Shown: positions 35,994 through 60,215 of the stretch, one piece after another
Layout of the letters: each line of letters starts with the position of its first letter
Position numbering within the stretch: position 1 is the stretch's first letter
Assembly (NCBI GenBank): GCA_031414595.1
Contig: JANNVX010000098.1
Coordinates: 32,001-96,000 of the forward strand
DNA from: Deinococcales bacterium
GTDB taxonomy: Bacteria; Deinococcota; Deinococci; Deinococcales; JAAFIG01
DNA length: 64,000 bases
Direction: 5' to 3'
Program-made: the position numbers and the translations under genes
The notes under the pieces: generated by a model
Seen by the model: only the letters and a program-made list of their open reading frames with translations
The model's database searches: none
What the model was told of the DNA's origin: nothing

Positions 35994-35999
35994 ATAACC

Positions 36000-36063
36000 G
36001 TAGGGGCGAGGTTGTCTTGACCCTAAACATGCACCTAGCGGGCAGGGTCGCACGCCTCGCCCT
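36000..36063 (+). repeat. GTAG-family REP palindrome with nested insert
   Basis: GTAGGGGCGAGG...CCTCGCCCT between nuoB and nuoC. Confidence 0.85.
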
Positions 36064-36078
36064 CTTTGGAGGACACCC

Positions 36079-40100: not shown

Positions 40101-41455
40101 CTTTAGTTGCTGAAGCACCTGTAGCTGAAAAACCAAAAAGCATTACCAGTGGACTCGACCCGCGTTTCAAACCACGATTGTACGAACACGTTGGGCAAAA
40201 TAATTCGTGGACGCTCGAGTACGCCCTGCGTCATGGCGCTTACGAAGGTGCAAAACGTGCCTTGGCTGGAACACCAGAATCAGTCCAAGATGAAGTCAAA
40301 AAATCAGGTTTGCGCGGACGTGGCGGCGCTGGTTTCCCGACGGGCTTAAAGTGGTCATTTATGCCCAAAGAAGATGGCAAACCCCATTATTTGGTCTGCA
40401 ACGCCGATGAATCCGAACCCGGCACGTATAAAGACCGTTACTTGATGGAAGCCGACCCACACCAGTTACTTGAGGGAATGCTTGTGGGAATGCACGCCAT
40501 CCGCGCCAATGTTGGTTACATTTATATTCGCGGCGAGTACATTCTTGGCGCAAATCGCTTAAACGCTGCGATAGCCGAGGCTCGAGCCGCAGGGATTTTT
40601 GGCGAAAATGCGCTTGGTTTTGGTAAAAGTATGGAAGTTTTTGTACATCGCGGGGCTGGGGCATACATTTGCGGTGAAGAAACCGCGTTGATGAATTCAC
40701 TCGAGGGGCTACGAGCCAATCCGCGCCTGAAGCCACCGTTTCCTGCTCAAGCTGGAATTTTTGGAATGCCAAGCACTGTTAATAATGTGGTCAGTATCGC
40801 TTCGGCTGCCCTAATATTGCGCCACGGTGCGGACTGGTTCTCGAGCATGGGGACAGAAAAAAGCAAAGGGAATTTCTTGTTTCATATTTCCGGACCCGTT
40901 AAGCGTCCGGGCGTGTACGAATTGCCACTTGGCACAACTTACCGCGAGATTATTTACACTTGGGGCGGTGGACCAACGGAAAGCATCAAAGCCTTTAACC
41001 CCGGTGGCTCGAGTACCCCGATGCTTCCATTCACTGATGAGATTCTGGACATGCCAGCCGATTACGAAAATTGCGCTGCCAAAGGAACTTTTCTTGGTAC
41101 GGGCGGAATTATCTTGATTCCCCAAAATTGCGATATTGTCAATATGATGTACAACTATGTTCGTTTTTATGGTCACGAATCTTGTGGCAAATGCACCCCA
41201 TGCCGTGAAGGAATTGGTACTTGGATGAATCGTATCTTCCAAAAACTGATTTCTGGTAAAGGCGACCCGAACGATGTAAAAATTCTCGAGGATTTATTTG
41301 GCAACATCAAAGGCAAATCGTTTTGTTTGCTTGCCGATTCGTGCATTATGCCAGTGCAGAGTGCCATGAAACTTTTCCGTGATGAATTTGAATATATTGC
41401 TCAGCATGGTAAACCGATATATACAGGTTACGGCAATCGCTGGAAAGACGAATAG
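40097..41455 (+). CDS. nuoF: NADH-quinone oxidoreductase subunit F
   Basis: [49 protein letters not shown]. Confidence 0.97.
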
Positions 41456-41579
41456 ATTCTCGAGAAGGAGGTGAACCCGTGATGCAAGATTATTTATTTC
41501 AAAAGCTGCCACGCTCGAGCTTTGGGCGGCATTGCGGGTTTAGCTCCAAGTATTCTCGAATTGAATTGAAGTGGCGGAT

Positions 41580-42545
41580 ATGAAAGAAATTATTGTCCAC
41601 CAAGTCAACATTGCCCATTATCGGTTGCTCGAGCTAACGCTGTTGGCTGACCAAGCCAAACCGTTTTATGATTGGATTGAAAAAACTGCTCGACAAATCA
41701 CAGGCTCGCACTTAACCCTGAATGAATTGCTGCTGACTTGCACAAAAGAACAACTCAAAAGTATTGTGATGGCTTGTTATACCCAAACGACGCAACAAAA
41801 ACCATTTCTGTTTGATGGTGTTGGGCGAGCCTACCCCCATAAAAAAGCCTGTTTCTATTTTTTTGCATGGATGATACGAGATGCACCTCAACAACGACTC
41901 GCGCCACTTATCTCGAGAATGCAAAAACTTGTCAGACTCGAGAAAATAGTAATTGAAACAGATAGTCTAATCGAACTGATTTTCGAGTACAGAACGAATG
42001 TCAAGTCTTTTGAATGGCAAGCTGTTCGTGAGGTCGTGATTGACCGTTTAGAAGGCTCGAGGCGAAGTATCAGTGGTAACAAAATAGAAGCCGATGTGCG
42101 AATTGGTTTAGGAATTGCCTTGCAGTGGTATTACGCGGTTCATGGCAATTATGGTCAGTTCAAAGAAATTCAAATTGCTGATAAGCAAATCAAAGTCGGC
42201 AATCACACCATAGATGTATCTGCGAATTTAATTTTAGAGAACAAACAAAGTAAACAAATTTTTATTCCCGTGAAAACCCGAGAAACCGAAGGCGGCGGGC
42301 ATTCACACTTATTCACTCGAGACATCATGAATGCCATAACAGATATTCAATCAGCCAATTGTTTTATTGTGGCGGTCATCATTGCCGAAAATTGGTCAGT
42401 TCATGAACTCGAGACAATCAAAAATCAAATAGATTTGGTACTGTATTTCAACATGAACCCCAATGTTTTTACGGGTTTTGACCAAGCCTCACAAATACAA
42501 TTTAATCAACTTATCGAAAAAATTCTGCAAGGACAAGCATCATGA
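41580..42545 (+). CDS. Putative type II restriction endonuclease
   Basis: RLEGSRRSISG..IE, IDV...PVKTRE PD-(D/E)xK-like pattern; translationally coupled to a DNA MTase. Confidence 0.6.
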   Translation: MKEIIVHQVNIAHYRLLELTLLADQAKPFYDWIEKTARQITGSHLTLNELLLTCTKEQLKSIVMACYTQTTQQKPFLFDGVGRAYPHKKACFYFFAWMIRDAPQQRLAPLISRMQKLVRLEKIVIETDSLIELIFEYRTNVKSFEWQAVREVVIDRLEGSRRSISGNKIEADVRIGLGIALQWYYAVHGNYGQFKEIQIADKQIKVGNHTIDVSANLILENKQSKQIFIPVKTRETEGGGHSHLFTRDIMNAITDIQSANCFIVAVIIAENWSVHELETIKNQIDLVLYFNMNPNVFTGFDQASQIQFNQLIEKILQGQAS

Positions 42546-43456
42546 ACGGTCAGGTTTTCCTTGGGGATGCTCGAGAGATTGCCGTTAATCTCGAGTATCA
42601 TTCTGTTCAAAGTATTATCACCAGCCCACCCTATTTTGGATTGCGAAATTATGCTGACCAGCCAAGCCCAGCCGAAATTGGACAAGAAGCGACAGTTCAA
42701 GAATATGTGACGAACTTGGTCAGTATTTTCCGCAGCTTAAAACAAGCACTTAAACCTGACGGATTACTCTGGCTTAATTTAGGCGATACATACCGCGAAA
42801 AGTCCTTGCTGGGTATTCCGTGGCGCGTTGCTTTAGCTTTACAAGATGATGGTTGGTTATTGCGTTCGGACATTATTTGGCATAAACCCAACGCCATGCC
42901 CTCGAGTATTAAAAATCGCCCAACTACAGACCATGAGTACATTTTCTTATTTGCGCTCAACCGAGATTATTACTATGATGCCGATGCCATCCGTGAGCCA
43001 CACATTACATTCACTGAGCAATCCAAAATGAAAGGTGGGCGAAATCACTTTGGGAAAGAAGGAGGCACACCCGAAAATGGCAAGAACGCTGGCAATAGTA
43101 ACCTTCATGACGGACGATGGGATCAAGCCTTTCACCCAAAAGGCAGAAACAAACGCACTGTATGGCAAATACCTCTAAGTAAATTTAGAGACTCACACTT
43201 TGCGGTTTTTCCAGAAAAACTTGTTGAAACCTGTATTCTTGCTTCGACTCGAGTGTCTGATGTTATCCTTGACCCATTTGCGGGGTCTGGCACAACTGGT
43301 GTTGTTGCCACAAAATTACAACGCCGATTCATAGGTATAGAACTTGTGAAAAAATATCAAGAAATGGCACAGGCTCGAATAAACCAAGCCAACCCACAAA
43401 CCGATTTATTTAGTGTTCTGACAGCCCAAGAAGAAATGACTCATGAAGCCGCCTAA
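42542..43456 (+). CDS. Site-specific DNA methyltransferase, beta class (probable m4C)
   Basis: TSPPY motif IV before LDPFAGSGTT motif I; LWLNLGD, IIWHKPN, HFAVFP. Confidence 0.92.
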   Translation: MNGQVFLGDAREIAVNLEYHSVQSIITSPPYFGLRNYADQPSPAEIGQEATVQEYVTNLVSIFRSLKQALKPDGLLWLNLGDTYREKSLLGIPWRVALALQDDGWLLRSDIIWHKPNAMPSSIKNRPTTDHEYIFLFALNRDYYYDADAIREPHITFTEQSKMKGGRNHFGKEGGTPENGKNAGNSNLHDGRWDQAFHPKGRNKRTVWQIPLSKFRDSHFAVFPEKLVETCILASTRVSDVILDPFAGSGTTGVVATKLQRRFIGIELVKKYQEMAQARINQANPQTDLFSVLTAQEEMTHEAA

Positions 43457-43562
43457 GTTTAAGATAACTCGAGAAGGAAAACGATGAGCCAAGCCAACCC
43501 AAGTTTTAACCCCACTTTTTGCAAGTGCTGTTCATCATTGCACCATGCCTTATGCTCAGTCC

Positions 43563-44047: not shown

Positions 44048-44496
44048 ATATTTTTTTAGACACCAACATTTTTTTAAGACTGACCGATGAAAACTCGAGT
44101 CAACATGAACTTGTCGTTAAAGCTGTGGCGCAATTACTGGCTCGAGGAGACGAACTTTATTTTGCGCCACAAACAATTGTTGAATTTTGGGCAGTGGCAA
44201 CCAGACCACTACAAGCCAATGGTTTGGGGTTAGATGCCCAAACGATAGAACATAAACGAGAAGAATTTTCTGATGAATATAAAATGCTCGAGGAAACCCC
44301 AGCCTTATATGAAAAGTGGCTCGAGTTGGTCAAGCAACACGCGGTTCAAGGTAAGCAAGTCCACGACACCCGACTTGTGGCACAAATGTTGGTGCATAAT
44401 ATCAATACGATTTTGACAATCAACACGGCGGATTTTAAGCGATTCTCGAACATAACGGCTGTGCATCCAGAGCAAGTGCTAAAAGGTGAAGCATAA
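44044..44496 (+). CDS. vapC: PIN domain (VapC-like) toxin
   Basis: FLDTNIFLR, EFW.VATRP, GKQVHDTRLVA, ILT.N.ADF. Confidence 0.88.
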   Translation: MNIFLDTNIFLRLTDENSSQHELVVKAVAQLLARGDELYFAPQTIVEFWAVATRPLQANGLGLDAQTIEHKREEFSDEYKMLEETPALYEKWLELVKQHAVQGKQVHDTRLVAQMLVHNINTILTINTADFKRFSNITAVHPEQVLKGEA

Positions 44497-44549
44497 AGCC
44501 CAAGCAGAAAGCCAAAAGCCAAAGAGGTGAGTTAATGTCAGTTTTAGAA
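44484..44549 (+). repeat. Cassette-junction direct repeat, family J (copy 1)
   Basis: AAGCATAAAGCCCAAGC--AGAAAGCCAAA...GAGGTGAGTTAATGTCAGTTTTAGA. Confidence 0.8.
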
Positions 44550-44729
44550 ATGATTCGAGAAGTTCCAAAATTAACCCATGCAGAGCAAAGTTTATTGCTG
44601 CTCGAGTTGCAAAAATACTTGCAACCACCAGCAGATTTAAGCCAAATTCCAACCAATGGTATAGCCGAGTTATTCCCGTTCTACGAAGCCATTAACGCCA
44701 ACCATGATTTATCCAGAATTGTAAAATAA
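44535..44729 (+). CDS. Small partner protein of retropepsin module (copy 1)
   Basis: RBS GAGGTG; MSVL start; helical; paralogous to 46893, 52952, 53632. Confidence 0.7.
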   Translation: MSVLEMIREVPKLTHAEQSLLLLELQKYLQPPADLSQIPTNGIAELFPFYEAINANHDLSRIVK

Positions 44730-44737
44730 GGCAACCA

Positions 44738-45142
44738 ATGAAATCTGTAACCTACCCATACTTACCAAATAGACAAAATTCTCTGATGCCGTATCTGCCC
44801 GTTCAACTCGAGCAGCAAGGTCGGGTTATAGAAACTATGGCGTTGGTAGACAGTGGCGCAGTTTCCAGTATTTTGCCATATTCAATGGGACTAGCCCTAG
44901 GATTAGATTGGCAGTCAGCCCAACAAGGTTTAGATGTGATTGGAGCAGTTGTTTCACCTTCAAAAAATGTTCGTGCGGTACTGCATATCCCGCAATTCTC
45001 GGCACTCGAGACGGGGTTTTCTTGGGTTGAAGATGATAATAAGCCGTTAATTCTTGGGCAGAGGATTTTCTTTTATCAGTTCCAAGTTCAGTTTGACGGT
45101 CGGCAACCAAGTTTTACTTTGACAAGGCAGGAACAAGCATGA
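44738..45142 (+). CDS. Retropepsin-like aspartic protease (copy 1)
   Basis: MPY, ALVDSGA, GLALGLDW, PLILGQRIFF. Confidence 0.8.
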   Translation: MKSVTYPYLPNRQNSLMPYLPVQLEQQGRVIETMALVDSGAVSSILPYSMGLALGLDWQSAQQGLDVIGAVVSPSKNVRAVLHIPQFSALETGFSWVEDDNKPLILGQRIFFYQFQVQFDGRQPSFTLTRQEQA

Positions 45143-45187
45143 AGCCCAAGCTCGAGCAGAAAGCCAAAAGGGAAGATACAGATGGGT
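45134..45187 (+). repeat. Cassette-junction direct repeat, family J (copy 2)
   Basis: CAAGCATGAAGCCCAAGCTCGAGCAGAAAGCCAAAAGGGAAGATACAGATGGGT. Confidence 0.85.
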
Positions 45188-45203: not shown

Positions 45204-46199
45204 ATGATAGATAAATCAGACCGAAATAAAACAATAGAATTATCTGAGGCAGAAAAAATGCTTTACTCAGAACGGTTAAGTCGTTTTGATCAATGTGCAA
45301 CCCAAGCCGATGTACAAAATAAAACCTTAAATCAAGATTTGTTCTCGGTACTCGAGTTTTTACCCACTGGTTTTGTGGATTTGTTGTTTATTGACCCGCC
45401 GTATAATTTAAGTAAAACCTTTAACGAAGTCAGTTTTAAGAAAACCTCGTTTGAAGAGTATGTGATTTGGGTAGACCTTTGGCTGTCCAAGTTGGTGCGA
45501 ACCTTAAAACCAAATGCTTCCGTCTATATCTGCTCGGATTGGCTTTCTTCACCTGCTATTTTTGAAGTTGCAAGACGTTACTTTATTGTCCGTAGTCGAA
45601 TCACTTGGGAACGCGAAAAAGGACGTGGTGCATTGACCAATTGGAAAAATTCATCTGAAGATATTTTGTTTTGTACAGTTTCAGATGAATATACTTTTAA
45701 TGTCGAACAGGTCAAACTCAAGAAAAAAGTGATTGCCCCATACCGCACCGATGATGGAATTCCTAAAGATTGGAGCGAAACCGACGATGGCAATTACAGG
45801 CTGACGCATCCATCTAACCTTTGGACAGACATCACCGTGCCATTCTGGTCAATGCCCGAAAATACTGAGCATCCGACGCAGAAACCCGAGAAACTGCTGG
45901 CTAAAATCATCCTCGCCAGTTCAAATGTTGGCGATATGGTTTTTGACCCATTTTTTGGCTCTGGAACAACCTTGGTGACAGCCAAAAAACTCGAGCGAAA
46001 CTTTTGTGGCGTGGAAATAGACCCATATTATGCTTGTATTTGCCAGAAGCGTCTCGAGATGGCAGAGTTAGACGGTGGCATCCAAGGCTACAGCCAAGGT
46101 GTGTTTTGGGAACGCAATACACTGGCAGAACAAAAATCTGAAGCCCCAAAGCCCAAAAAACGCACTTTGGCTCGAGAGCAACAGGAACAATTCTTATGA
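45204..46199 (+). CDS. Site-specific DNA methyltransferase, beta class (m6A/m4C)
   Basis: IDPPYN, HPTQKPE, FDPFFGSGTT. Confidence 0.92.
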   Translation: MIDKSDRNKTIELSEAEKMLYSERLSRFDQCATQADVQNKTLNQDLFSVLEFLPTGFVDLLFIDPPYNLSKTFNEVSFKKTSFEEYVIWVDLWLSKLVRTLKPNASVYICSDWLSSPAIFEVARRYFIVRSRITWEREKGRGALTNWKNSSEDILFCTVSDEYTFNVEQVKLKKKVIAPYRTDDGIPKDWSETDDGNYRLTHPSNLWTDITVPFWSMPENTEHPTQKPEKLLAKIILASSNVGDMVFDPFFGSGTTLVTAKKLERNFCGVEIDPYYACICQKRLEMAELDGGIQGYSQGVFWERNTLAEQKSEAPKPKKRTLAREQQEQFL

Positions 46200-46837
46200 G
46201 CCAAGTTTTTACCCATGGTTTTGAAACTCGCACCCTCGAGAGGCTGAATGCACTGGCAAAAACCATTCCTGTTTCGATTCTGGGCAGCCCCCGCTCAATT
46301 GGGGATACCATCCAAGATTTAATTGGACAGCACTTTCTCGAGTTAATGGGTAAGGAAATTTGTAAGACATACTCGAGTGAATCAGCACGGCGTTCAATGG
46401 CAGATGTGGCTTTTGAAGATTTTGATGGTAATTTTTATTCGGTGGATATTAAAACCCATAATTTAGGTACAAAATTTAATATGCCAAATTTGACTTCTGT
46501 GGAACGTTTAGCACGGCTTTACGAAAGTGACAAAGATTATTTTTGTGTTCTGCTGATTGCTTATGGTGTCGAAAACTCGAGTATTACTTTTGAAAGCGCT
46601 AAATTTGTGCCGATTGAACATATAGACTGGAATTGTTTAACCATAGGTGCGTTGGGTTGGGGGCAAATTCAAATTGCCAATTCAAACAAGTTTTTAACGA
46701 ATGCCACACAAACCAGAAAAGCATGGATGATTGAACTTTGCGATACGCTACTTGGTTTTTATCCTCGAGAAATTCTCAAAATTAACGAACGAATTGAGCA
46801 TTTTGTAGCCATTCGTCAGAAATGGATGGAGCGTTGA
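46196..46837 (+). CDS. Putative type II restriction endonuclease
   Basis: MADVAF...VDIKT PD-(D/E)xK pattern, FNMPNL, GWGQIQI; ATGA-coupled to the MTase. Confidence 0.65.
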   Translation: MSQVFTHGFETRTLERLNALAKTIPVSILGSPRSIGDTIQDLIGQHFLELMGKEICKTYSSESARRSMADVAFEDFDGNFYSVDIKTHNLGTKFNMPNLTSVERLARLYESDKDYFCVLLIAYGVENSSITFESAKFVPIEHIDWNCLTIGALGWGQIQIANSNKFLTNATQTRKAWMIELCDTLLGFYPREILKINERIEHFVAIRQKWMER

Positions 46838-46845
46838 TATGATGT

Positions 46846-46906
46846 CAAGCATGAAGCCCAAGCTCAAGAAGAAAGCCAAAGAGGTGAGTTAAATGTCAGT
46901 TTTAGA
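46846..46906 (+). repeat. Cassette-junction direct repeat, family J (copy 3)
   Basis: CAAGCATGAAGCCCAAGCTCAAGAAGAAAGCCAAAGAGGTGAGTTAAATGTCAGTTTTAGA. Confidence 0.85.
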
Positions 46907-47105
46907 TTATGTGCAACAAGCTAAAAATTATAGTTTAGACGAACGTCAAGAAATCATTGCCAGTCTCCAAGAACAAATTTTTGAGCAGCGACAAAAAACC
47001 ATGATAAAACCACGAAAAGATGGGGTGTTTGAAATTTGGTCTCCGACTGTAGATGCTGCTTCGATGGAAAAACTTCAAGAACGAGCAAGGCAGCGAAAAC
47101 TGTGA
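46893..47105 (+). CDS. Small partner protein of retropepsin module (copy 2)
   Basis: MSVL start, FEIWSP motif; GTGA overlap with the protease. Confidence 0.72.
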   Translation: MSVLDYVQQAKNYSLDERQEIIASLQEQIFEQRQKTMIKPRKDGVFEIWSPTVDAASMEKLQERARQRKL

Positions 47106-47527
47106 GCCGAATAGCCCGATTTCCGTATGCAGAATCAGCTACCAATGTGCGTATGCCGTATATAGATGTGCTTATTGATTCTGGCGAAGTAGCAGTTCGA
47201 GTCAAAGCTCTACTCGATTCAGGCGCAATGGTCAATGTCATTCCAAAGCAAGTAGGAGAACGGCTAAACTTAAACTGGGAAAAAGGAGTAGATATTGCCC
47301 TAGGCGGTAACTTAGGCAAAGCACCTGCTCGAGCCTTTTATTTGAATTGTACAGTACAGGGTTTAGAAGTGACACAACTAGAACTTAATTGGTCAATGCT
47401 CGAGGATATTCCTGTTATTTTTGGGCAGTTTGATTTTTTCCAGAATTTCGATGTGTGTTTTTCGTACTCAGAAAATGAAATTAGTGTGCGACCTAGGCGA
47501 GTACAACAGAATCAAGGTGAAGCATGA
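47102..47527 (+). CDS. Retropepsin-like aspartic protease (copy 2)
   Basis: MPY, ALLDSGA, GERLNLNW, PVIFGQFDFF..FDVCF. Confidence 0.8.
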   Translation: MSRIARFPYAESATNVRMPYIDVLIDSGEVAVRVKALLDSGAMVNVIPKQVGERLNLNWEKGVDIALGGNLGKAPARAFYLNCTVQGLEVTQLELNWSMLEDIPVIFGQFDFFQNFDVCFSYSENEISVRPRRVQQNQGEA

Positions 47528-47572
47528 AGCCCAAGCTCGAGCAGAAAGCCAAAAGGGAAGACACAGATGGGT
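47514..47572 (+). repeat. Cassette-junction direct repeat, family J (copy 4)
   Basis: AAGGTGAAGCATGAAGCCCAAGCTCGAGCAGAAAGCCAAAAGGGAAGACACAGATGGGT. Confidence 0.85.
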
Positions 47573-48039: not shown

Positions 48040-50406
48040 ATGCCTAAAGTAATTGTGAATGATCGTCAAATCGAAGTCCCTAATGGTGCATCTGCTTTGG
48101 ATGCGGTTTTCCAAGCAGGTTTCGATGTGCCTTATTTCTGCTCTAACGAGTATCTCTCGCCGATTGGTGCGTGTCGAATGTGCCTTGTCGAAGCTGGCTC
48201 GCCGCGTAAAAATCCCGATGGTTCTTGGATTCTCGAGGATGGTGTTCCAAAACTGTTTTACTTCCCCGGTACAGTCGCAAGCTGCACACTGGCAACTTCC
48301 GAAGGCATGGTCATTAAAACCACCACTGAGGCGGCTGTCAAAGCCCAAGCTGGGATGATGGAATTCACGCTGATTAACCATCCGCTTGATTGCCCCACCT
48401 GCGATAAGGGTGGCGCGTGTGAACTCCAAGACCGAGCTTACGAGTATGGTTACGGCGAAGCGCGTTTTGAATTTACTCGCCGTCATGCCGATAAGCACCA
48501 TGCCCTGTCTGATTTTATTGTGCTGGATAAGGAACGCTGCATTCATTGCAAACGCTGTGTGCGTTACTTCGAGGAAATCCCGGGCGAAGAAGTGCTGGAT
48601 TTCATCGAACGCGGTGGGCATACTTTTATAGATTCGTACCAATCCGAAGACTTGGCGGGCGCAAAACTCGGTAATTTTAGCGGCAATATTAACGACCTCT
48701 GCCCTGTAGGAGCGCTGCTCGATAACGTCTCGAGATTCCGTGGGCGCAACTGGGAATATGACCGCACCCAAACCACCGATATGTCCAACGCCGATGGCTC
48801 GAGTATTTGGGTGGATGCTCGAACGGGGCGAATCGAACGCATTCGCGCCGCTCACAACAAAGAAGTTAATGAAATTTGGATTTCCGACGCACAGCGTTTT
48901 GGGCATGAATGGGTGGATGCCGATGCTCGAGTCCGCACGCCACTGATTCGTAAAAATGGCAAACTCGAGCCAGCCACCTTTGATGAAGCTGTTGAAGTGA
49001 TTGCAAAAGCCAATCTCGAGCCGAGCAAATTAGGTTTGTATACCAGTGCTGACATCACCCTCGAGGAAGGTGTGGCGCTTGAGTCGTTTGCTAAGACCAT
49101 TGCGACCATCAATGTAGACCATTTTCCGCGTTATAACAGCGCTCTGAGTGGTGTTGCTCGAGCCACCTTTACCGACCTTGCCAAAGCGGACGCAATTATC
49201 GTGATTGGTGCAGACTTGTACGAAGAATCTGGCACAGCCTACTTGCGAATCGAGGAGAGCTTGAAGGGTGTTATCACCTCCGACACGCAATTTAATCACG
49301 GTGCGCCTTTGGCAGATTTGCGTCTCAAAGAACGCATGGACAGAAAGCGCGGTAAACTGGCGGTCTTTGCACCAATTCCAGTGCAACAAATGAGCCACGC
49401 GGGAATCTCGAGCCTGTATGCAGTAGGTGCTGAACTCGAGCTTTTGGCGCAGATTAACCAAGCCAAATCGGGTAATGACTCGAGCAACGCCCAAGCCAAC
49501 GCTGCTGGCAAACTGCTCTCGAGTGCCAAAAACCCTGTGATTGTGCTGGGTAGCTTTGCGCTTGCCTCAGATGCCGAAAAAGTGTTGGCAGCCGCTAAGA
49601 AACTCGGTGGAAAAATCATGCCGATTCCAGCAGGTGCAAACGGCGCTGGACTCGAGACTTTAGAACTTGTACCAACCAAAAATGGGCGCAGTTTTGGGCA
49701 GTGGGACGGCTTAAAAGGCTTGTTCGTTTCGGGTAGTGCCATGACCAAGCGTCCAAAATCGCTCGAGATGTTGGTGGTTCACACCCATACCCTGACAGGC
49801 GCGGCACTCGAGGCGAATGTGGTGCTGCCAGCCCTGACTGCCTACGAGAAACGCGGCACAACCATGAATCTCGAGGGGCGCTTGTTGCCTTTGGCTGGGG
49901 CAGCCGTGGATGGTGGGCAAGGCGTGGACATGATTGGTGCGTTGCAAGTCTTATCCGATGCCATGAGTGCTAAACTCGAGATTCGTGGAACGCGCAGCGC
50001 CCAACGAATCCTGCAAGATAAATTTGGTCTCGAGATGGACAAAATTGCCGTTGAAGGTGCGTTTCCTGTGAAAACTGTCTCGAGTCGTTCAGCGCCAATT
50101 GTGCGCTCCACCACGGGCGAAACCGTACTGCTTGTGCCAAGAATGTGGTCTGAAAACATGCTCTCGAGCCAGCGCATCCGTGAAAGTGTCGGCGCAGATT
50201 ACTTAACTGTCAACTCGAGTGATGCCCAAAAAATGGGTGTGCGGGATGGCTTTACTTTAGAGCTAGAAGTCAACGGCAAACCTCGAGCCGTGACCGTTCG
50301 GATAGATGATGCGGTGTCTGCGCCAACGCTGCCCGCTTTGAATTCAGATTTGTCTGGGGCGCTTTCGAGTGTCAAAATAGCGGTCATGGCAGGAGGGGAT
50401 GATTAA
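48040..50406 (+). CDS. nuoG: NADH-quinone oxidoreductase subunit G
   Basis: [51 protein letters not shown]. Confidence 0.96.
50367..50405 (+). repeat. nuoG 3' end, duplicated at 51081-51119
   Basis: 36/39 identity with 51081-51119. Confidence 0.9.
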
Positions 50407-51080: not shown

Positions 51081-51119
51081 GAGTGTCAAAATAGCAGTGA
51101 TGGCAGGAGGCGATGATTA
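51081..51119 (+). repeat. Displaced duplicate of nuoG 3' end
   Basis: Encodes the same [12 protein letters not shown]; all 3 differences are synonymous third positions. Confidence 0.9.
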
Positions 51120-51801: not shown

Positions 51802-52926
51802 ATGCTGATTGAAATTTTAATTGTTTTACTAAAAGCCGTTGGTGTAGCCCTTGGGCTACTCACCACTTTCGCCTACATGACCCTAATCGAACGCCGTTTG
51901 CTTGGGCGTTTCCAAATGCGTCACGGTCCAAATCGGGTTGGTGGTCCGCTGGGTTTGGCTCAACCACTTGCCGATGCCATCAAAAGCATTTTCAAAGAGG
52001 ATGTCAACATCACCCTAGCCGATAAGTTCGTCTATTGGATTGCGCCACTTATCGCCATCACCATGTCCTTAACCGCTTTCGGAGCAATTCCAGCCGGTCC
52101 TGCTGGTAGTTTATTCGGCACTGACCCTTGGGTGTTTAACCTCGATATTGGCTTGCTGTTTATTCTTGGAACAACCAGCATGGGTGTCTACGGCATTTTT
52201 CTGGGTGGTTGGGCTTCGGGCAGCAAATACCCGCTTTTGGGTGGGCTTCGTGCCAGCGCCCAAGTGATTAGTTACGAACTCGGTATGGGGCTTAGTGTCT
52301 TGGGGCTACTGATTCTAGTGGGCAGCATGAACTTGCTCGAGATTGTCAAATGGCAAACCGAAAATGGCTGGTTAATTCTGTTTCAGTGTGTGGCTTTCAT
52401 GACTTTTTTTGTTTCCGCCTTTGCCGAAACCAACCGCTCACCGTTTGACCTTCCAGAAGCCGAACAAGAATTGGTGGCAGGGTTTCTAACCGAATACTCG
52501 AGCATCAAATGGGCATTGTTTCAAATGGCGGAGTACGTGGCAATGATTACGGCTTCGGCAGTCATGGCAACCTTGTTCTTTGGTGGCTACAAAGGACCAA
52601 ATCTCGAGATAGCTGGGTTTAACATTGGCAATATTCCATTTATTTGGTTGTACGCTAAAATTGGTGTGTTTTTGTTTGTGTTTATCTGGGTTCGGGCAAC
52701 GCTCCCTCGGATGAGGTACGACAAGCTGATGCAATTCGGTTGGAAGTTCTTGTTTCCTGTGGCACTAGGTAACACGCTTGTGGCAGCAGGTTTCAGAGGC
52801 TACTTCCCCAAAGATACCCCTTGGATTTTAGGTGGGATTAGCTTGGTTGCTCTCATTATTATTTTTGCTGTGACCTCGAGAAACCCTGTGCGACCCGCGC
52901 CTGCTCGAGCCAATGCTGGCGACTGA
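51802..52926 (+). CDS. nuoH: NADH-quinone oxidoreductase subunit H
   Basis: ERRLL...[44 protein letters not shown]. Confidence 0.97.
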
Positions 52927-52959
52927 TAGAATGATTTTGGAGGTGAATGAAATGAGTGT
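52901..52959 (+). repeat. nuoH 3'-end/junction repeat, family H (copy 1)
   Basis: 54/59 identical to 53581-53639; partial third copy at 54249-54278; contains CTCGAG, TGaTAGAAT and GGAGG. Confidence 0.9.
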
Positions 52960-53164
52960 GATGCAAATGGTTGAAAGTGTAAGGGAGTTATCCATAGCCG
53001 AAATTGAACAATTACAAGATGCGCTCGAGAAAGAACGTTTGATGCAACTCAGTAAAATAGCTGCTAAACGTTGGGCTGGTAAGACTTTTGAATTGTGTTT
53101 CCCCTCGAGCAAAGATGTACCTGTCCACCCTTTTCAAGTTTTTCTCGAGAATCAAAAACCATGA
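52952..53164 (+). CDS. Small partner protein of retropepsin module (copy 3)
   Basis: RBS GGAGGTG, MSV start, FELCFP motif; ATGA overlap. Confidence 0.7.
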   Translation: MSVMQMVESVRELSIAEIEQLQDALEKERLMQLSKIAAKRWAGKTFELCFPSSKDVPVHPFQVFLENQKP

Positions 53165-53577
53165 ATTACGTTAAATTTCCGTATCAACCAATCAAAGATG
53201 ATTTATTCATGCCTTATGCGTGGGTGCGTTTGTCCTTTGGTAATACTTTTTGGGATGAATGGGCTTTGGTTGATAGTGGTGCGGAAATCAATGTTATTCC
53301 GTTTAGTGTTGGAGTAAAATTGGGTCTTGATTGGAATACATCTGAAGATGGTCCAACAATTGGTGGTAGTGCTTCTGGTGCTACGAAAACTGTTGAACTT
53401 ACTGTGACTATCGGTTCTTTTACAAATGTGTCAATGAGTTTTTGTTGGCTCAGTCATGATAATGTTAGGGTTTTACTTGGAGAACAAGATTTTTTTGAGA
53501 ATTTTGCTGTTTATTTTGATTTACAAAACAAAGAATTTGCTTTGTTTCAATATGCAAAGAAACAGGATGTTGAGTAG
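53161..53577 (+). CDS. Retropepsin-like aspartic protease (copy 3)
   Basis: MPY, ALVDSGA, GVKLGLDW, VLLGEQDFF. Confidence 0.8.
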   Translation: MNYVKFPYQPIKDDLFMPYAWVRLSFGNTFWDEWALVDSGAEINVIPFSVGVKLGLDWNTSEDGPTIGGSASGATKTVELTVTIGSFTNVSMSFCWLSHDNVRVLLGEQDFFENFAVYFDLQNKEFALFQYAKKQDVE

Positions 53578-53580
53578 CCT

Positions 53581-53639
53581 CTGCTCGAGCTAAAGCTGGT
53601 AGCTGATAGAATGATTTTGGAGGTGAATGAAATGAGTGT
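53581..53639 (+). repeat. Family H junction repeat (copy 2)
   Basis: Exactly 680 bp downstream of copy 1. Confidence 0.9.
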
Positions 53640-53853
53640 CGGACAAATAATTACACAACTTAAAAGTCTCTCGAGAAATGATTTGGTCTTAATCGTGAAT
53701 GAGGCACAGAAAACACTTCATGAACTTGACCCGATTGCATCCAATCATCTTGACTTGTCCAAAATGCCAAAGAACCCTGAAATTTGGTCGCCTTGGGATG
53801 AATACCAAGCCGCTGATGATATGGAAAGATTACTCGCTGAGGGAAAATTGTGA
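53632..53853 (+). CDS. Small partner protein of retropepsin module (copy 4)
   Basis: MSV start, EIWSPWDEYQAA motif; GTGA overlap. Confidence 0.72.
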   Translation: MSVGQIITQLKSLSRNDLVLIVNEAQKTLHELDPIASNHLDLSKMPKNPEIWSPWDEYQAADDMERLLAEGKL

Positions 53854-54272
53854 GTGATGTAGAGCGTTTTTCTTACATAATTAAGGGCGAAATGGGTAAA
53901 ATGCCGATTATTCCTATTCGTTTCTTAGATAATAATAAAGCCATTGAAGAACTAGCGCTTTTAGATTCTGGTGCAGCCGTGAGTATTTTACCGTACAGAA
54001 TGGGTTTAGCATTAAAGCAGGATTGGAATAATCCAAAATTATATGAGGCTAGGCTAGGTGGCGTGTTTCGGCATTTAACTGGAAAATTTGTGAAAGTGTC
54101 ATTGCAAATTGGGCAACTCGAGCCTCGAGATGTTGCATTCGTGTGGATGGAATCTGAAAATGTGCCGCTTATTCTTGGTAATGGTAATTTCTTTCAGATT
54201 TTTGATGTGTGTTTTTCACGCTTAAACAATGAAATTTCGGTGCGTTTAGCTCGAGCCAAAGCTGGTAGCTGA
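53850..54272 (+). CDS. Retropepsin-like aspartic protease (copy 4)
   Basis: MP, ALLDSGA, GLALKQDW, PLILGNGNFF..FDVCF. Confidence 0.8.
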   Translation: MSDVERFSYIIKGEMGKMPIIPIRFLDNNKAIEELALLDSGAAVSILPYRMGLALKQDWNNPKLYEARLGGVFRHLTGKFVKVSLQIGQLEPRDVAFVWMESENVPLILGNGNFFQIFDVCFSRLNNEISVRLARAKAGS

Positions 54273-54278
54273 TAGAAT
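54249..54278 (+). repeat. Family H junction repeat (copy 3, partial)
   Basis: GCTCGAGCCAAAGCTGGTAGCTGATAGAAT. Confidence 0.85.
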
Positions 54279-54296
54279 AAAATTGGGGGAGTATTT

Positions 54297-54731
54297 ATGC
54301 CAAAAAGTAAAAATCCGTATAGCAAAGAGGTAAAAGAGAAGGCAATAAGAAAAGTTGCAGAAGGTTTGTCTTACGCTGAAGTAGGACGCGAAATGGGGAT
54401 TCCATATTCGACTATTAGTAATTGGTCTAAGGAAGGTGGTATTGAAAGTAAACATAGTAATGGCAAGGGGCAGGCTTTGTACAATATGATGCGGGTCTGT
54501 ACAACCTTGTTTCAAACAATAAGTCAAATCCATAGCTATGCTTATGGCACTTTTCAAAACAGTAGGCACTATAAACATCTACGAGACGCTGCAAAAAAGG
54601 GCTTACTTGAAAGAAGAATAGATGGATTAGATGAGTCATTTAAATTAACAAAACTTGGCAAAGAATGGTTAAAAGCTAATGAAAATACTTTTGAAGAAAA
54701 ATATCAAGAATTAATTTTAAAGCGAGCGTAA
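54297..54731 (+). CDS. HTH protein (IS3 OrfA-like N-terminal HTH + winged-helix-like C-terminus)
   Basis: YSKEVKEKAI...SYAEVGREMGIPYSTISNW; KKGLLE...FKLTKLGKEWL; AT-rich. Confidence 0.6.
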   Translation: MPKSKNPYSKEVKEKAIRKVAEGLSYAEVGREMGIPYSTISNWSKEGGIESKHSNGKGQALYNMMRVCTTLFQTISQIHSYAYGTFQNSRHYKHLRDAAKKGLLERRIDGLDESFKLTKLGKEWLKANENTFEEKYQELILKRA

Positions 54732-54769: not shown

Positions 54770-55444
54770 ATGGGTGTTCTCGAGATCGCCAAAGGGATGG
54801 GTACAACCCTTGGCAAATTGTTCCAAAAGCCTTTAACCGTTTCCTATCCAGAAACGCCAATTCGTTTGCAACCGCGTTTTCGTGGTCGGCATATCCTGAC
54901 TAAGCACGCCAACGGCTTAGAAAAGTGCATTGGCTGTTCGCTCTGCGCTGCCGCCTGTCCAGCCTATGCCATCTATGTCGAAGCCGCCGAGAATACCTCG
55001 ATCCAGACCGTCTCGGCGGGGGAAAGGTACGCTTCGGTATACGAAATCAATATGCTGCGCTGTATTTTTTGCGGCATGTGCGAAGAGGCTTGCCCGACAG
55101 GTGCAATTATTTTAGGTACAGACTTTGAACTCGCCGATTATAAATCTCGAGATTTTGTGTATGGCAAGGAAGACATGATGGTCGGTGTGGTCGGTACAAA
55201 GCCCCAACGCCGCGAAGCCGAACACAAGAATAAACCCGTCAAACTTGGCTACAACATCACCCCTCGAGCCGAAGTTGCCGAGGCACTCGAGGCGCTAAAG
55301 AACCCCAATAAGCGAGTCTCGAGTCTGCCAGCCTCGGGTGTGGGTATAGGGGTTGTATCTCGAGATACTGGGGACGACACAGGGCGCTCGAGTCCAAGCC
55401 GAATTAACGATGCACCAATTGCCAAGGGTATAGTGAAACGATGA
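54770..55444 (+). CDS. nuoI: NADH-quinone oxidoreductase subunit I
   Basis: [12 protein letters not shown] and [12 protein letters not shown]. Confidence 0.97.
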
Positions 55445-56004: not shown

Positions 56005-56016
56005 CCCAAAATCACC

Positions 56017-56079
56017 GTAGGGGCGAGACTGTCTTGACCCTAAACACGCACCTAGCGGGCAGGGTCGCTTGCCTCGCCC
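56017..56079 (+). repeat. GTAG-family REP palindrome with nested insert
   Basis: Near-identical to 36000-36063. Confidence 0.85.
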
Positions 56080-56094
56080 AACTGAGAGGACATC

Positions 56095-58362: not shown

Positions 58363-58375
58363 TTCATTATGGTTT

Positions 58376-58510
58376 CGTAGGGGCGACGGAGCTTCAAGCG
58401 ACGGGGGTCGCCCTTGATGTGCAAAAGCGCAATGCTTTGGCGGGTTGGGCGAGGCATACCTGTCTTGACCCAATACACGCACCTCACGGGCAGGGTCGCT
58501 CGCCCCTACG
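58376..58510. repeat. REP doublet (REPIN/BIME-like) with terminal CGTAGGGGCGA inverted repeats
   Basis: CGTAGGGGCGA...TCGCCCCTACG between nuoL and nuoM. Confidence 0.85.
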
Positions 58511-60052: not shown

Positions 60053-60068
60053 CCCCCGTTTACGAATT

Positions 60069-60180
60069 CGTAGGGGCGAACCTTGTGTTCGCCCTGACCC
60101 TGCCTTGTGCGTACAGGGCGATGACAAGCGACCCAAGCCCGAAGGTGCTGTTTTTGCGGTCAAGAAGCATCGCCCCTACG
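60069..60180. repeat. REP doublet (REPIN/BIME-like)
   Basis: CGTAGGGGCGA...TCGCCCCTACG between nuoM and nuoN. Confidence 0.85.
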
Positions 60181-60215
60181 GTTGGTTTGGTGTTGGTTGT
60201 GACCGAGGTGTGTTT

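Follow-up and report, generated by a model that had tools for sequence, protein, structure and literature searches.

The nuoH end and its copies

The stretch of DNA analysed here (the window, 64,000 nucleotides (nt) of the forward strand of a Deinococcales genome) holds the nuo operon from nuoB to nuoM, whose intergenic gaps are filled with co-oriented accessory open reading frames (ORFs). Behind nuoH lie two cassettes, each consisting of a small ORF (small1, small2) and a retropepsin-like gene (AP1, AP2), followed by a helix-turn-helix (HTH) gene and nuoI (Table 1). The end of nuoH recurs at the joints of this array. A direct-repeat search returned one repeat family with three copies, at 52901-52968 (the reference), 53581-53648 (87% identical over 68 nt) and 54247-54314 (62%), with spacings of 680 nt between copies 1 and 2 and 666 nt between copies 2 and 3. 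This agrees with a first-pass annotation, made from the sequence alone, in which the nuoH end had been seen to recur twice at these spacings, once with 54 of 59 nt identical and once in part. The genome under study is designated G000 and its relatives from the same family G001 onward; the nuoH end was compared in 11 genomes.

Table 1. Features of the nuo operon discussed in the text (positions in the window)
Feature	Position	Strand	Description
nuoF stop, then ATTCTCGAGAAGGA	41455..41475	+	like stretch ATAACTCGAGAAGGA near 43466-43486
J2a, PIN-gene end GGTGAAGCATAA..	44483..44548	+	further copies 45134-45187, 46846-46880, 47520-47572
nuoG end ..VMAGGDD*	50367..50405	+	repeated at 51081-51119 (92% of 39 nt); brackets a 213-aa lipoprotein-like ORF
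nuoH	51802..52926	+	374 aa; ARANAGD* end is the repeat source; relatives' NuoH 73-98% identical
J1a, junction copy 1	52901..52959	+	nuoH end, stop, TAGAAT, GGAGG, ATGAGTGT
small1	52952..53164	+	70 aa, starts MSV; stop overlaps AP1 start (ATGA)
AP1	53161..53577	+	138 aa, retropepsin-like, LVDSGA; PF13650 29.6 bits (cut-off 24.3); PADLOC PDC-M52B E 1.3e-18
J1b, junction copy 2	53581..53639	+	untranslated, hybrid by its sequence
small2	53632..53853	+	73 aa, starts MSV; stop overlaps AP2 start (GTGA)
AP2	53850..54272	+	140 aa, retropepsin-like; PDC-M52B E 1.2e-26
J1c, junction copy 3	54249..54278	+	30-nt core; with the HTH gene, orthologous to the G006 junction copy and HTH gene
HTH gene	54297..54731	+	144 aa, HTH_Tnp_1-like, without catalytic domain; G006 version 72% identical
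nuoI	54770..55444	+	from the ORF list and comparison with relatives

The 59 nt aligned between copies 1 and 2 begin with CTGCTCGAGCC, seven codons before the nuoH stop, and continue through TGA, TAGAAT and GGAGG to ATGAGTGT, the first codons of small1; the two copies mismatch only at positions 11, 14, 20, 21 and 22. The 30-nt core of copy 3 is identical to copy 2 at 29 positions and to copy 1 at 26, copy 1 differing from copies 2 and 3 at four to five of the 30 positions. As first annotated, an extended -10-like word, TGATAGAAT, is common to all three copies, and GGAGG together with the start of the next small gene, ATGAGTGT included, is found in copies 1 and 2. The NuoH end encoded in copy 1 is ARANAGD*, and copy 3, read in frame, gives AP2 the matching tail ARAKAGS*, a correspondence already pointed out in that annotation. 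AP2 is a gene fusion: its last seven codons and its stop are junction copy 3. Copy 2 begins 3 nt past the AP1 stop and is untranslated.

The last 100 nt of nuoH in G000 contain two CTCGAG sites, and the sole palindrome that the repeat search found within the junction is GCTCGAGC. Elsewhere in the 4.49-Mb genome the junction has just short matches centred on CTCGAG. Within an unrelated ORF of 276 amino acids (aa), 20 nt match the nuoH end perfectly and likewise encode ARANAGD in frame (G000:C88:16558-16577; L004 1501-1520); this may be a chance match, aided by the palindrome and by codon usage.

All five differences between copies 1 and 2 fall in the first 22 nt, and none in the last 37 (Fisher p = 0.005). 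The first 22 nt of copy 2 resemble copy 3 and the second junction copies (Jb) of the relatives G003 and G007, and its last 37 nt are those of copy 1. By this distribution of differences, copy 2 is shown to be a recombinant hybrid that would have recombined with copy 1 after the duplication. Copies 2 and 3 form the youngest junction pair.

A promoter scan returned five sites against 5.4 expected, all on the other strand and none at the junctions, where it lists no site because no -35 is present. TAGAAT and GGAGG are kept in all six genomes that carry small1. It is plausible that the junction copies may serve as promoter and ribosome-binding site (RBS).

The first-pass annotation had also described the enclosed genes as highly diverged between conserved junctions, and the pairwise comparison that it proposed bears this out. 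In a global alignment of units 1 and 2 (47% identity overall), the first 60 columns hold 54 identities and the later full 30-column windows 8-19 each, with 3 in the gap-filled last window. AP1 and AP2 share 30% of their residues, small1 and small2 18%; judged by this alignment, the cassette interiors are about as dissimilar as unrelated DNA.

The aspartyl-protease motif is retained in both AP proteins (LVDSGA or LLDSGA); D38 and G40 are invariant in 18 AP sequences, and S39 in the four of this genome. AP2 falls below both profile cut-offs (PF13975, 23.4 bits; PF13650, 20.4 bits), and each of the four AP proteins has a match to PADLOC's defence candidate PDC-M52B (E 1e-18 to 8e-28). The small proteins matched no PADLOC or Pfam family, and NCBIfam returned no family for either the small or the AP proteins. 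An MSV.. small ORF is retained ahead of AP in 15 of 18 loci from relatives. A model of the small1-AP1 complex scored 0.87, the best control 0.03; it was built on our own alignments of 18 rows each, its three runs share at least 96% of contacts, and the predicted local distance difference test (pLDDT) value of the partner is at least 82. Of 157 solved complexes 116 reach the mark used for such models, as do 2 of 215 mismatched pairs; with our own alignments these rates are only rough. The modelled contacts include AP residues 34-45, around the DSG motif. According to the prediction, the small protein, which is helical, lies over the cleft of the retropepsin-like protein.

In G018 the AP partner (L068:1892-2164, G018:C171) is a 91-aa protein with an N-terminal Phd/YefM domain (33.3 bits against a cut-off of 29.8) and a C-terminal EIWTP.. 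segment as in the small proteins, which suggests that the latter are antitoxin-like neutralisers. We read the small/AP pair as a toxin-antitoxin-like or defence module of putative activity; as a conserved small-protein/retropepsin-like pair (PADLOC PDC-M52) it stands out as a candidate of either kind. The AP family, annotated as a "hypothetical protein" of about 135 aa, is widespread in cyanobacteria and Chloroflexi (200 of 3133 candidates at E <=1e-5). A metagenome scan for AP2 relatives yielded 120 pattern matches and 0 confirmed ones, and a literature search pairing "retropepsin-like" with "antitoxin" found no paper.

Repeated nuoH ends in related genomes

The NuoH end reads ..RAxxGD* with a CTCGAG in 10 of the 11 genomes, G002 having CTTCAAG. 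This end is native in the cassette-less genomes G002, G004, G006 and G013; in the last three of these it bears CTCGAG, and no small/AP pair lies behind nuoH. The end being present without a cassette, it would therefore have been copied from nuoH rather than brought in by a cassette, and the comparison shows the repeat, on its distribution among genomes, to derive from nuoH.

A small1/AP1-type pair, with an AP1-type orthologue in the same position, is found behind nuoH in G007, G008, G011 and G014-G018; to judge from this spread, the small/AP position behind nuoH is old. In the AP tree the pairs behind nuoH split into several clades that do not track genera, and AP2 forms a long branch, weakly grouped with APB and apart from AP1. 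The AP behind nuoH in G007, a member of genus g1, clusters with its counterparts in G011 and G014 of genus g5 and not with AP1 of G000 (loci L061-L082), and at the nuoH position the g5 genomes have two or more unrelated AP clades. Such mixed clades at one position suggest that cassettes were replaced across genera.

In G003, G006 and G007, Jb copies are placed as copy 2 is in G000, share with it the left context TAGCCC.T (GCCCAT in G006), and are followed by a 198-aa ORF, an HTH gene and a 141-aa ORF, respectively. Within genus g1 (G000, G003, G006, G007) Jb thus precedes four different downstream genes. In G011, 60 nt repeat that genome's own nuoH end (53/60) and have their left edge exactly at an upstream CTCGAG; G016 has a 33-nt copy of its nuoH end (32/33) that runs from the terminal CTCGAG and stands before an unrelated 134-aa ORF. 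Copy 3 of G000 has a new left joint, at which the AP2 coding sequence meets GCTCGAG. From these alignments at least four separate nuoH-end duplications are shown to have taken place in the family, each before a different gene. The upstream edge lies 0-3 nt from a CTCGAG in all four, and the downstream edges fall anywhere from past TAGAAT to ATGAGTGT, with no common motif. By our own rough estimate the chance of a CTCGAG edge is about 0.1 per event, so that four of four would be improbable, a figure that is indicative only, the genomes being related.

As for the order of events, G006 has a single junction copy before its HTH gene, and G007 has AP1 followed by a single junction copy. The blastn match between G000 and G006 resumes exactly at 54249, which equates copy 3 and the HTH gene of G000 with the single copy and HTH gene of G006; G007 matches G000 through 53622, across AP1 and copy 2. 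Read most simply, the ancestral order was nuoH-junction-pair 1-junction-(gene), with pair 2 later placed into the second junction, duplicating 30 nt. Because copy 2 carries a leader identical to that of copy 1, although leaders are species-variable, one has to assume either that copies 1 and 2 later exchanged sequence or that genome copies with different cassettes underwent unequal crossing-over within the junction, and either could have made the hybrid. Concerted evolution of the copies was considered for genus g1 and dismissed: in a hand count, G000 and G007 agree at 26 of 30 positions of Jb, no less than do Jb and the first copy (Ja) within a genome. Across the window, the ends of blastn matches between G000 and six relatives were by eye mostly at gene starts and stops, not at CTCGAG; conserved genes beside variable spacers fix such ends whatever the mechanism.

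CTCGAG and repeat edges across the operon and the genome

The nuoH end is one of several repeated gene ends in the operon. The nuo genes of G000 and six congeners are collinear and 72-96% identical at the DNA level, and almost every gap between them differs. In the operon (window 35334-61646) we counted 27 accessory ORFs between nuoD and nuoM, among them two Uma2 genes, two methyltransferase pairs, a PIN gene, HicAB, a Phd-like gene and four small/AP pairs; the genome has no AP homologues besides those in these pairs. Accessory ORFs contain 5.4 CTCGAG per kb and nuo genes 6.0 (G+C 42% against 50%). Being as CTCGAG-dense as the nuo genes, the accessory ORFs would therefore be old residents of the lineage and no recent imports; by this measure the cassettes are long-term residents of a CTCGAG-rich lineage. 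An essential respiratory operon can thus be seen to harbour about 27 co-oriented accessory ORFs in the long term, variable between species, while the nuo genes stay put.

A second junction family, J2, has four copies of 34-53 nt built on the last codons of the PIN gene (..GGTGAAGCATAA/TGA AGCCCAAGC..). They bracket the small/AP cassettes A (44535-45142) and B (46893-47527) and a methyltransferase pair (45204-46837). Positions 44485-44518 of J2 (34 nt) align to both flanks of a 2.79-kb insert in G005, a clean case of a repeat that is single where the insert is absent. Repeats of the nuoG end enclose the lipoprotein-like ORF (Table 1), and the two nuoF-end stretches flank a restriction-modification-like pair (41571-43456) that G005 is without; each of the two methyltransferase pairs has its own junction repeats. 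With the ends of nuoF, nuoG and the PIN gene repeated around inserts, a duplicated end of the upstream gene is the rule here and no peculiarity of nuoH. A short hairpin-rich element (..CCGTAGGGGCGAG.. / ..CTCGCCCCTACGG..) occupies nuo spacers at 35995-36075, 56010-56090, 58370-58510 and 60060-60215; it is also found behind nuoH in G001, G004 and G006, and a related repeat occurs dozens of times in G001 and G007. By its distribution it looks like a miniature mobile repeat.

CTCGAG occurs 352 times in the window against 7.8 expected, and 23,235 times in the genome, that is, once per 193 nt and 23.9x the expectation from composition; the next palindrome reaches 2.2x. Over-represented across genes and spacers alike, it is a highly iterated palindrome. 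Being so dense, it has about a 1-in-7 chance of lying in any 30-nt stretch, and CTCGAG alone is no signal in this genome. Other 6-letter palindromes are nearly absent from G000 (GGGCCC 0, TGCGCA 2, CGATCG 3, GACGTC 3 and CGCGCG 3, with 780-970 expected), a depletion that suggests strong restriction avoidance.

The edges of repeats were compared with their own interiors. Scanning the genome for direct repeats of low copy number, 24-150 nt in length and separated by 60-6000 nt, gave 422 non-redundant pairs. Of these, 147 had a length of 24-90 nt, an identity of 85% or more and a spacing of 350-2500 nt; after removal of pairs with a collinear partner or similar flanks (paralogous coding repeats), 55 isolated pairs were left. 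An edge was scored when CTCGAG lay at offsets -1 to 3 in both copies, and positions 7-9 nt inward served as the control. CTCGAG was found at 20 of the 110 edges of isolated pairs and at 4 of the 110 control positions (Fisher p = 8e-4, with trios from one locus entering as separate pairs); at larger inward shifts it was found at 2-4 of 58-106. The edged pairs number 19, one of them with CTCGAG at both edges, or about 14 of about 46 when counted by locus (a hand count). The excess of CTCGAG at repeat edges, about five-fold, is real but partial. The first-pass annotation had proposed to test whether breakpoints in related genomes coincide with CTCGAG more often than its density predicts; the word marks these repeat edges more often than chance and lies at the upstream edge of the four nuoH-end events, and it is absent from the edges of two junction families of the operon.

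The 55 isolated pairs lie in 43 regions, four of them within the window; the other 39 were fetched, and with C67, a region dropped by the filter, 40 were examined. Thirteen of these 40 hold PIN, HicA, BrnT, Gp49, PemK, ParE or HEPN genes, mostly as two-gene modules between the repeats. At one locus, the C106 array (G000:C106:68796-70913; L138 1297-3414), a 35-nt repeat of the form CTCGAG-N23-CTCGAG, or a one-letter variant of it, stands at every joint and encloses MazEF-like and VapBC-like modules in opposite orientations. A motif search found four such repeats in G000, four in G001 (C456, L145) and one in G003 (C94, L144), where a degraded second copy lies at the left cassette edge. Boundaries of cassettes shared between genomes fall at CTCGAG for a ParDE cassette (left) and for the C106 array (both sides), and at gene ends for two others. 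A HEPN/nucleotidyltransferase (HEPN/MNT) cassette with its repeats is 99% identical between G000:C102:31006-31788 (L139 2009-2796) and G001:C774:4951-5738, its flanking genes being 92-95% identical; that the cassette is more alike than its flanks points to recent exchange. Among six toxin-antitoxin loci compared with five relatives no clean empty site was found, the flanks lying mostly on different contigs, and among the papers listed for toxin-antitoxin cassettes "flanked by direct repeats" none was, by title or abstract, on the subject.

Stacking of the cassettes and its relation to known systems

We consider it fairly probable that the three junction copies are long target duplications, the cassettes having been stacked behind nuoH by insertion or by unequal exchange. 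The exchange would take place between genome copies, or strains, that carry different cassettes behind nuoH, and each event would duplicate the stretch from the CTCGAG in the last nuoH codons to shortly past the stop. Breaks and joins may favour CTCGAG through microhomology or through cleavage of the palindrome. A broken or paired CTCGAG in the nuoH end could be repaired from a genome copy or from related-strain DNA with a different cassette; synthesis would then proceed through the donor cassette, the new strand would be recaptured at the CTCGAG end, and the stretch between CTCGAG and the point at which the haplotypes diverge would end up on both sides of the cassette. Such repair and capture would explain why the palindrome is at one edge only, why the cassettes look native by their CTCGAG content and why the same spot is reused. 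Once duplicated, the copies could delete, stack or swap cassettes by ordinary recombination between them. Each copy supplies a nuoH stop and TAGAAT, and copies 1 and 2 also GGAGG, so that stacked genes would keep their start context and such events would be tolerated inside an essential operon.

Several points weigh against this account. The empty site of cassette 2 is a composite of two species (G006 and G007), not a single genome, and the 29 nt past the core in copy 2 (leader, RBS and ATGAGTGT) lie outside the target in a simple insertion, for which reason a later exchange has to be assumed. J1b and J1c share only 30 nt, not above the >30 bp threshold of Furuta et al. (2010). CTCGAG is absent from both edges of J2, of the nuoG-end repeats and of 36 of the 55 isolated pairs; since J2 and the nuoG-end repeats lack it, CTCGAG is not obligatory at junction edges. 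The p-value of the edge test is optimistic, same-locus trios having been counted as separate pairs. No joints were found in the Logan contigs of four of eight public runs, and a search for an XhoI-type enzyme (PF04555) gave no match, in control genomes equally none, which makes that search uninformative. The account also presupposes a polyploid and transformable organism, as we assume this one to be by analogy with Deinococcus and Thermus.

An integron-like alternative is that the junction, or its CTCGAG, is the site of a dedicated cut-and-join or site-specific system that excises and reinserts cassettes. It would account for the C106 array, with one repeat at every joint, CTCGAG or a one-letter variant at both repeat edges and a cassette number that differs among G000, G001 and G003; for the exact start of intergenome homology at CTCGAG in that array and in the ParDE cassette; and for the near-identity of the HEPN/MNT cassette in G001. 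A cyanobacterial palindrome, highly iterated palindrome 1 (HIP1), has moreover been tied to site-specific recombination, with SDR5 inserted inside the palindrome (Elhai 2015, PMC4390886). The repeats vary between loci, however, 90 of the 110 repeat edges are not at CTCGAG, and the other intergenome cassette boundaries lie at gene ends. No integrase or transposase domain was found in or beside the cassettes, where the only candidate is the HTH-only ORF, and the Logan contigs contain neither joints nor circles. We therefore hold a dedicated system to be unlikely. The first-pass annotation had proposed that the junction works as a reusable recombination and expression unit. Its reuse is borne out by the nuoH-end duplications (at least four), the hybrid copy 2, the conserved junction and the CTCGAG edges; against a dedicated unit speak its being a locus-specific nuoH copy, the families without CTCGAG and a search that found no recombinase or hairpin site. 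The junction is no portable unit but locus-specific nuoH-derived sequence, and a target duplication that arose when cassettes were inserted or unequally exchanged is a better reading of it than a site dedicated to recombination.

Rather less probable still is an old tandem duplication of one small/AP unit whose junctions were kept alike by promoter/RBS selection or by gene conversion. The location of all four small/AP pairs in the nuo operon, the conservation of TAGAAT and GGAGG before small1 across two genera and the conversion-like tract in copy 2 are in line with it. AP2, however, does not group with AP1, and nuoH-end copies precede unrelated genes in G003, G006, G007, G011 and G016. Leaders vary between the g1 species yet are identical at 37 of 37 positions inside G000, an identity that constraint cannot explain. 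Uniform divergence, named beforehand as the signature of such a duplication, was not observed; identity instead drops sharply from junction to interior, from 29/30 to 11/30 within one alignment window. That the array is an assembly artefact, a 38-nt exact repeat having misled the assembler into joining alternative alleles, is barely credible. Logan contigs of the probable source runs do break off at 52952 and resume at 53610, where the exact repeat ends, and no contig lies on cassette 1, but such a gap is no proof where contigs have been filtered. Ordinary reads are longer than the repeat. A contig of 250 nt, X6, which comes from another study, runs from the end of AP1 through copy 2 and small2 with zero differences, and G007 has nuoH, cassette 1 and Jb in the same order. 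Contigs from two other studies (sediment and hot-spring metagenomes) carry pieces of cassette 2 without differences.

Beyond the long target duplications favoured here, a wider and more tentative proposal, which we think possible though rather doubtful, is that CTCGAG is the break-and-join point of an integrase-free stacking of cassettes, building arrays like those of integrons from toxin-antitoxin, restriction-modification and further small cassettes, even inside the nuo operon. Ends opened or paired at CTCGAG would capture a cassette from another genome copy or strain and leave a duplicated gene end behind. If true, gene flux would be a process in which a highly iterated palindrome plays a concrete part.

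Among known systems, integron arrays are similar in having small, co-oriented, mostly promoterless cassettes with a repeat at each joint and a cassette number that varies between relatives, and toxin-antitoxin cassettes are common integron cargo. Unlike in integrons, the repeats here are local, locus-specific copies. No integron integrase (the tyrosine recombinase IntI) was present in the scanned ORFs of window 31-64 kb, and no attC-type site or hairpin was found, the junction families differing by locus. In the minimal mobile elements of Neisseria, conserved genes flank strain-variable cassettes that are presumed to be exchanged by transformation and homologous recombination. The nuo genes likewise flank differing cassettes; the Neisseria elements, however, are cleanly replaced, whereas here cassettes are stacked with a duplicated gene end between them. 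The small/AP pair resembles PDC-M52 and type II toxin-antitoxin systems in its two overlapping genes, its PDC-M52B matches, the Phd/YefM domain in one relative's partner and its predicted binding, and differs in that the small proteins have no match among PADLOC and Pfam families.

The closest likeness for CTCGAG itself is cyanobacterial HIP1 (GCGATCGC), a palindrome that is likewise at least 20-fold over-represented, has been reported at recombination joints and for which a Chi-like role has been proposed (Elhai 2015, PMC4390886; Xu et al. 2018, PMC5861425). Elhai (2015) describes a link of HIP1 with both site-specific and illegitimate recombination, citing the insertion of the small repeat SDR5, and a Chi-like effect in transformation is proposed by Kamoku and Nielsen (2024; bioRxiv 10.1101/2024.09.10.611283). 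CTCGAG differs in being another word, of 6 and not 8 letters, in another phylum, and the evidence for it is comparative only (repeat edges and cassette boundaries). It adds a second phylum in which rearrangement joints appear to be marked by a highly iterated palindrome, which makes the long-standing question of palindrome function more testable.

The junctions themselves most resemble the "insertion with long target duplication" that Furuta, Abe and Kobayashi (2010; PMC2853133) and, as cited there, first Nobusato et al. (2000) described for restriction-modification units lacking mobility genes. In the cases that paper presents, the direct repeats are long, variable and locus-specific, and single in a strain without the unit; overlap between the repeat and the 3' end of the adjacent gene is reported for two Haemophilus cases. 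Thermus thermophilus provides one case, a gene fusion occurs at a joint, and most of the species are naturally competent; double-strand breakage is suspected, and the repeats are said to permit amplification. The nuoH array shares with these a short unit without mobility genes, locus-unique repeats, the overlap with a 3' end and the fusion at a joint. By the repeat length used there (>30 bp), J1a/J1b (59 nt, 54/59) qualifies and J1b/J1c (29/30) does not. The inserts, of 0.67-0.68 kb, are well within the 20-kb limit and free of mobile-element genes, their only Pfam matches being aspartyl-protease families, with the caveat that the HTH_Tnp_1-like ORF lies directly after copy 3. Cassettes 1 and 2 hold small and retropepsin-like ORFs and no restriction and modification genes; the cargo here, in contrast to that described by Furuta et al., is toxin-antitoxin-like pairs and single ORFs, restriction-modification genes only sometimes, and the arrays are stacked in an essential operon, with one edge preferentially at a hyper-abundant palindrome. 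Taken together, the nuoH junctions fit a known kind of event, the long target duplication, which they would extend from restriction-modification genes to toxin-antitoxin-like cassettes and to events that can pile up into stacked arrays.

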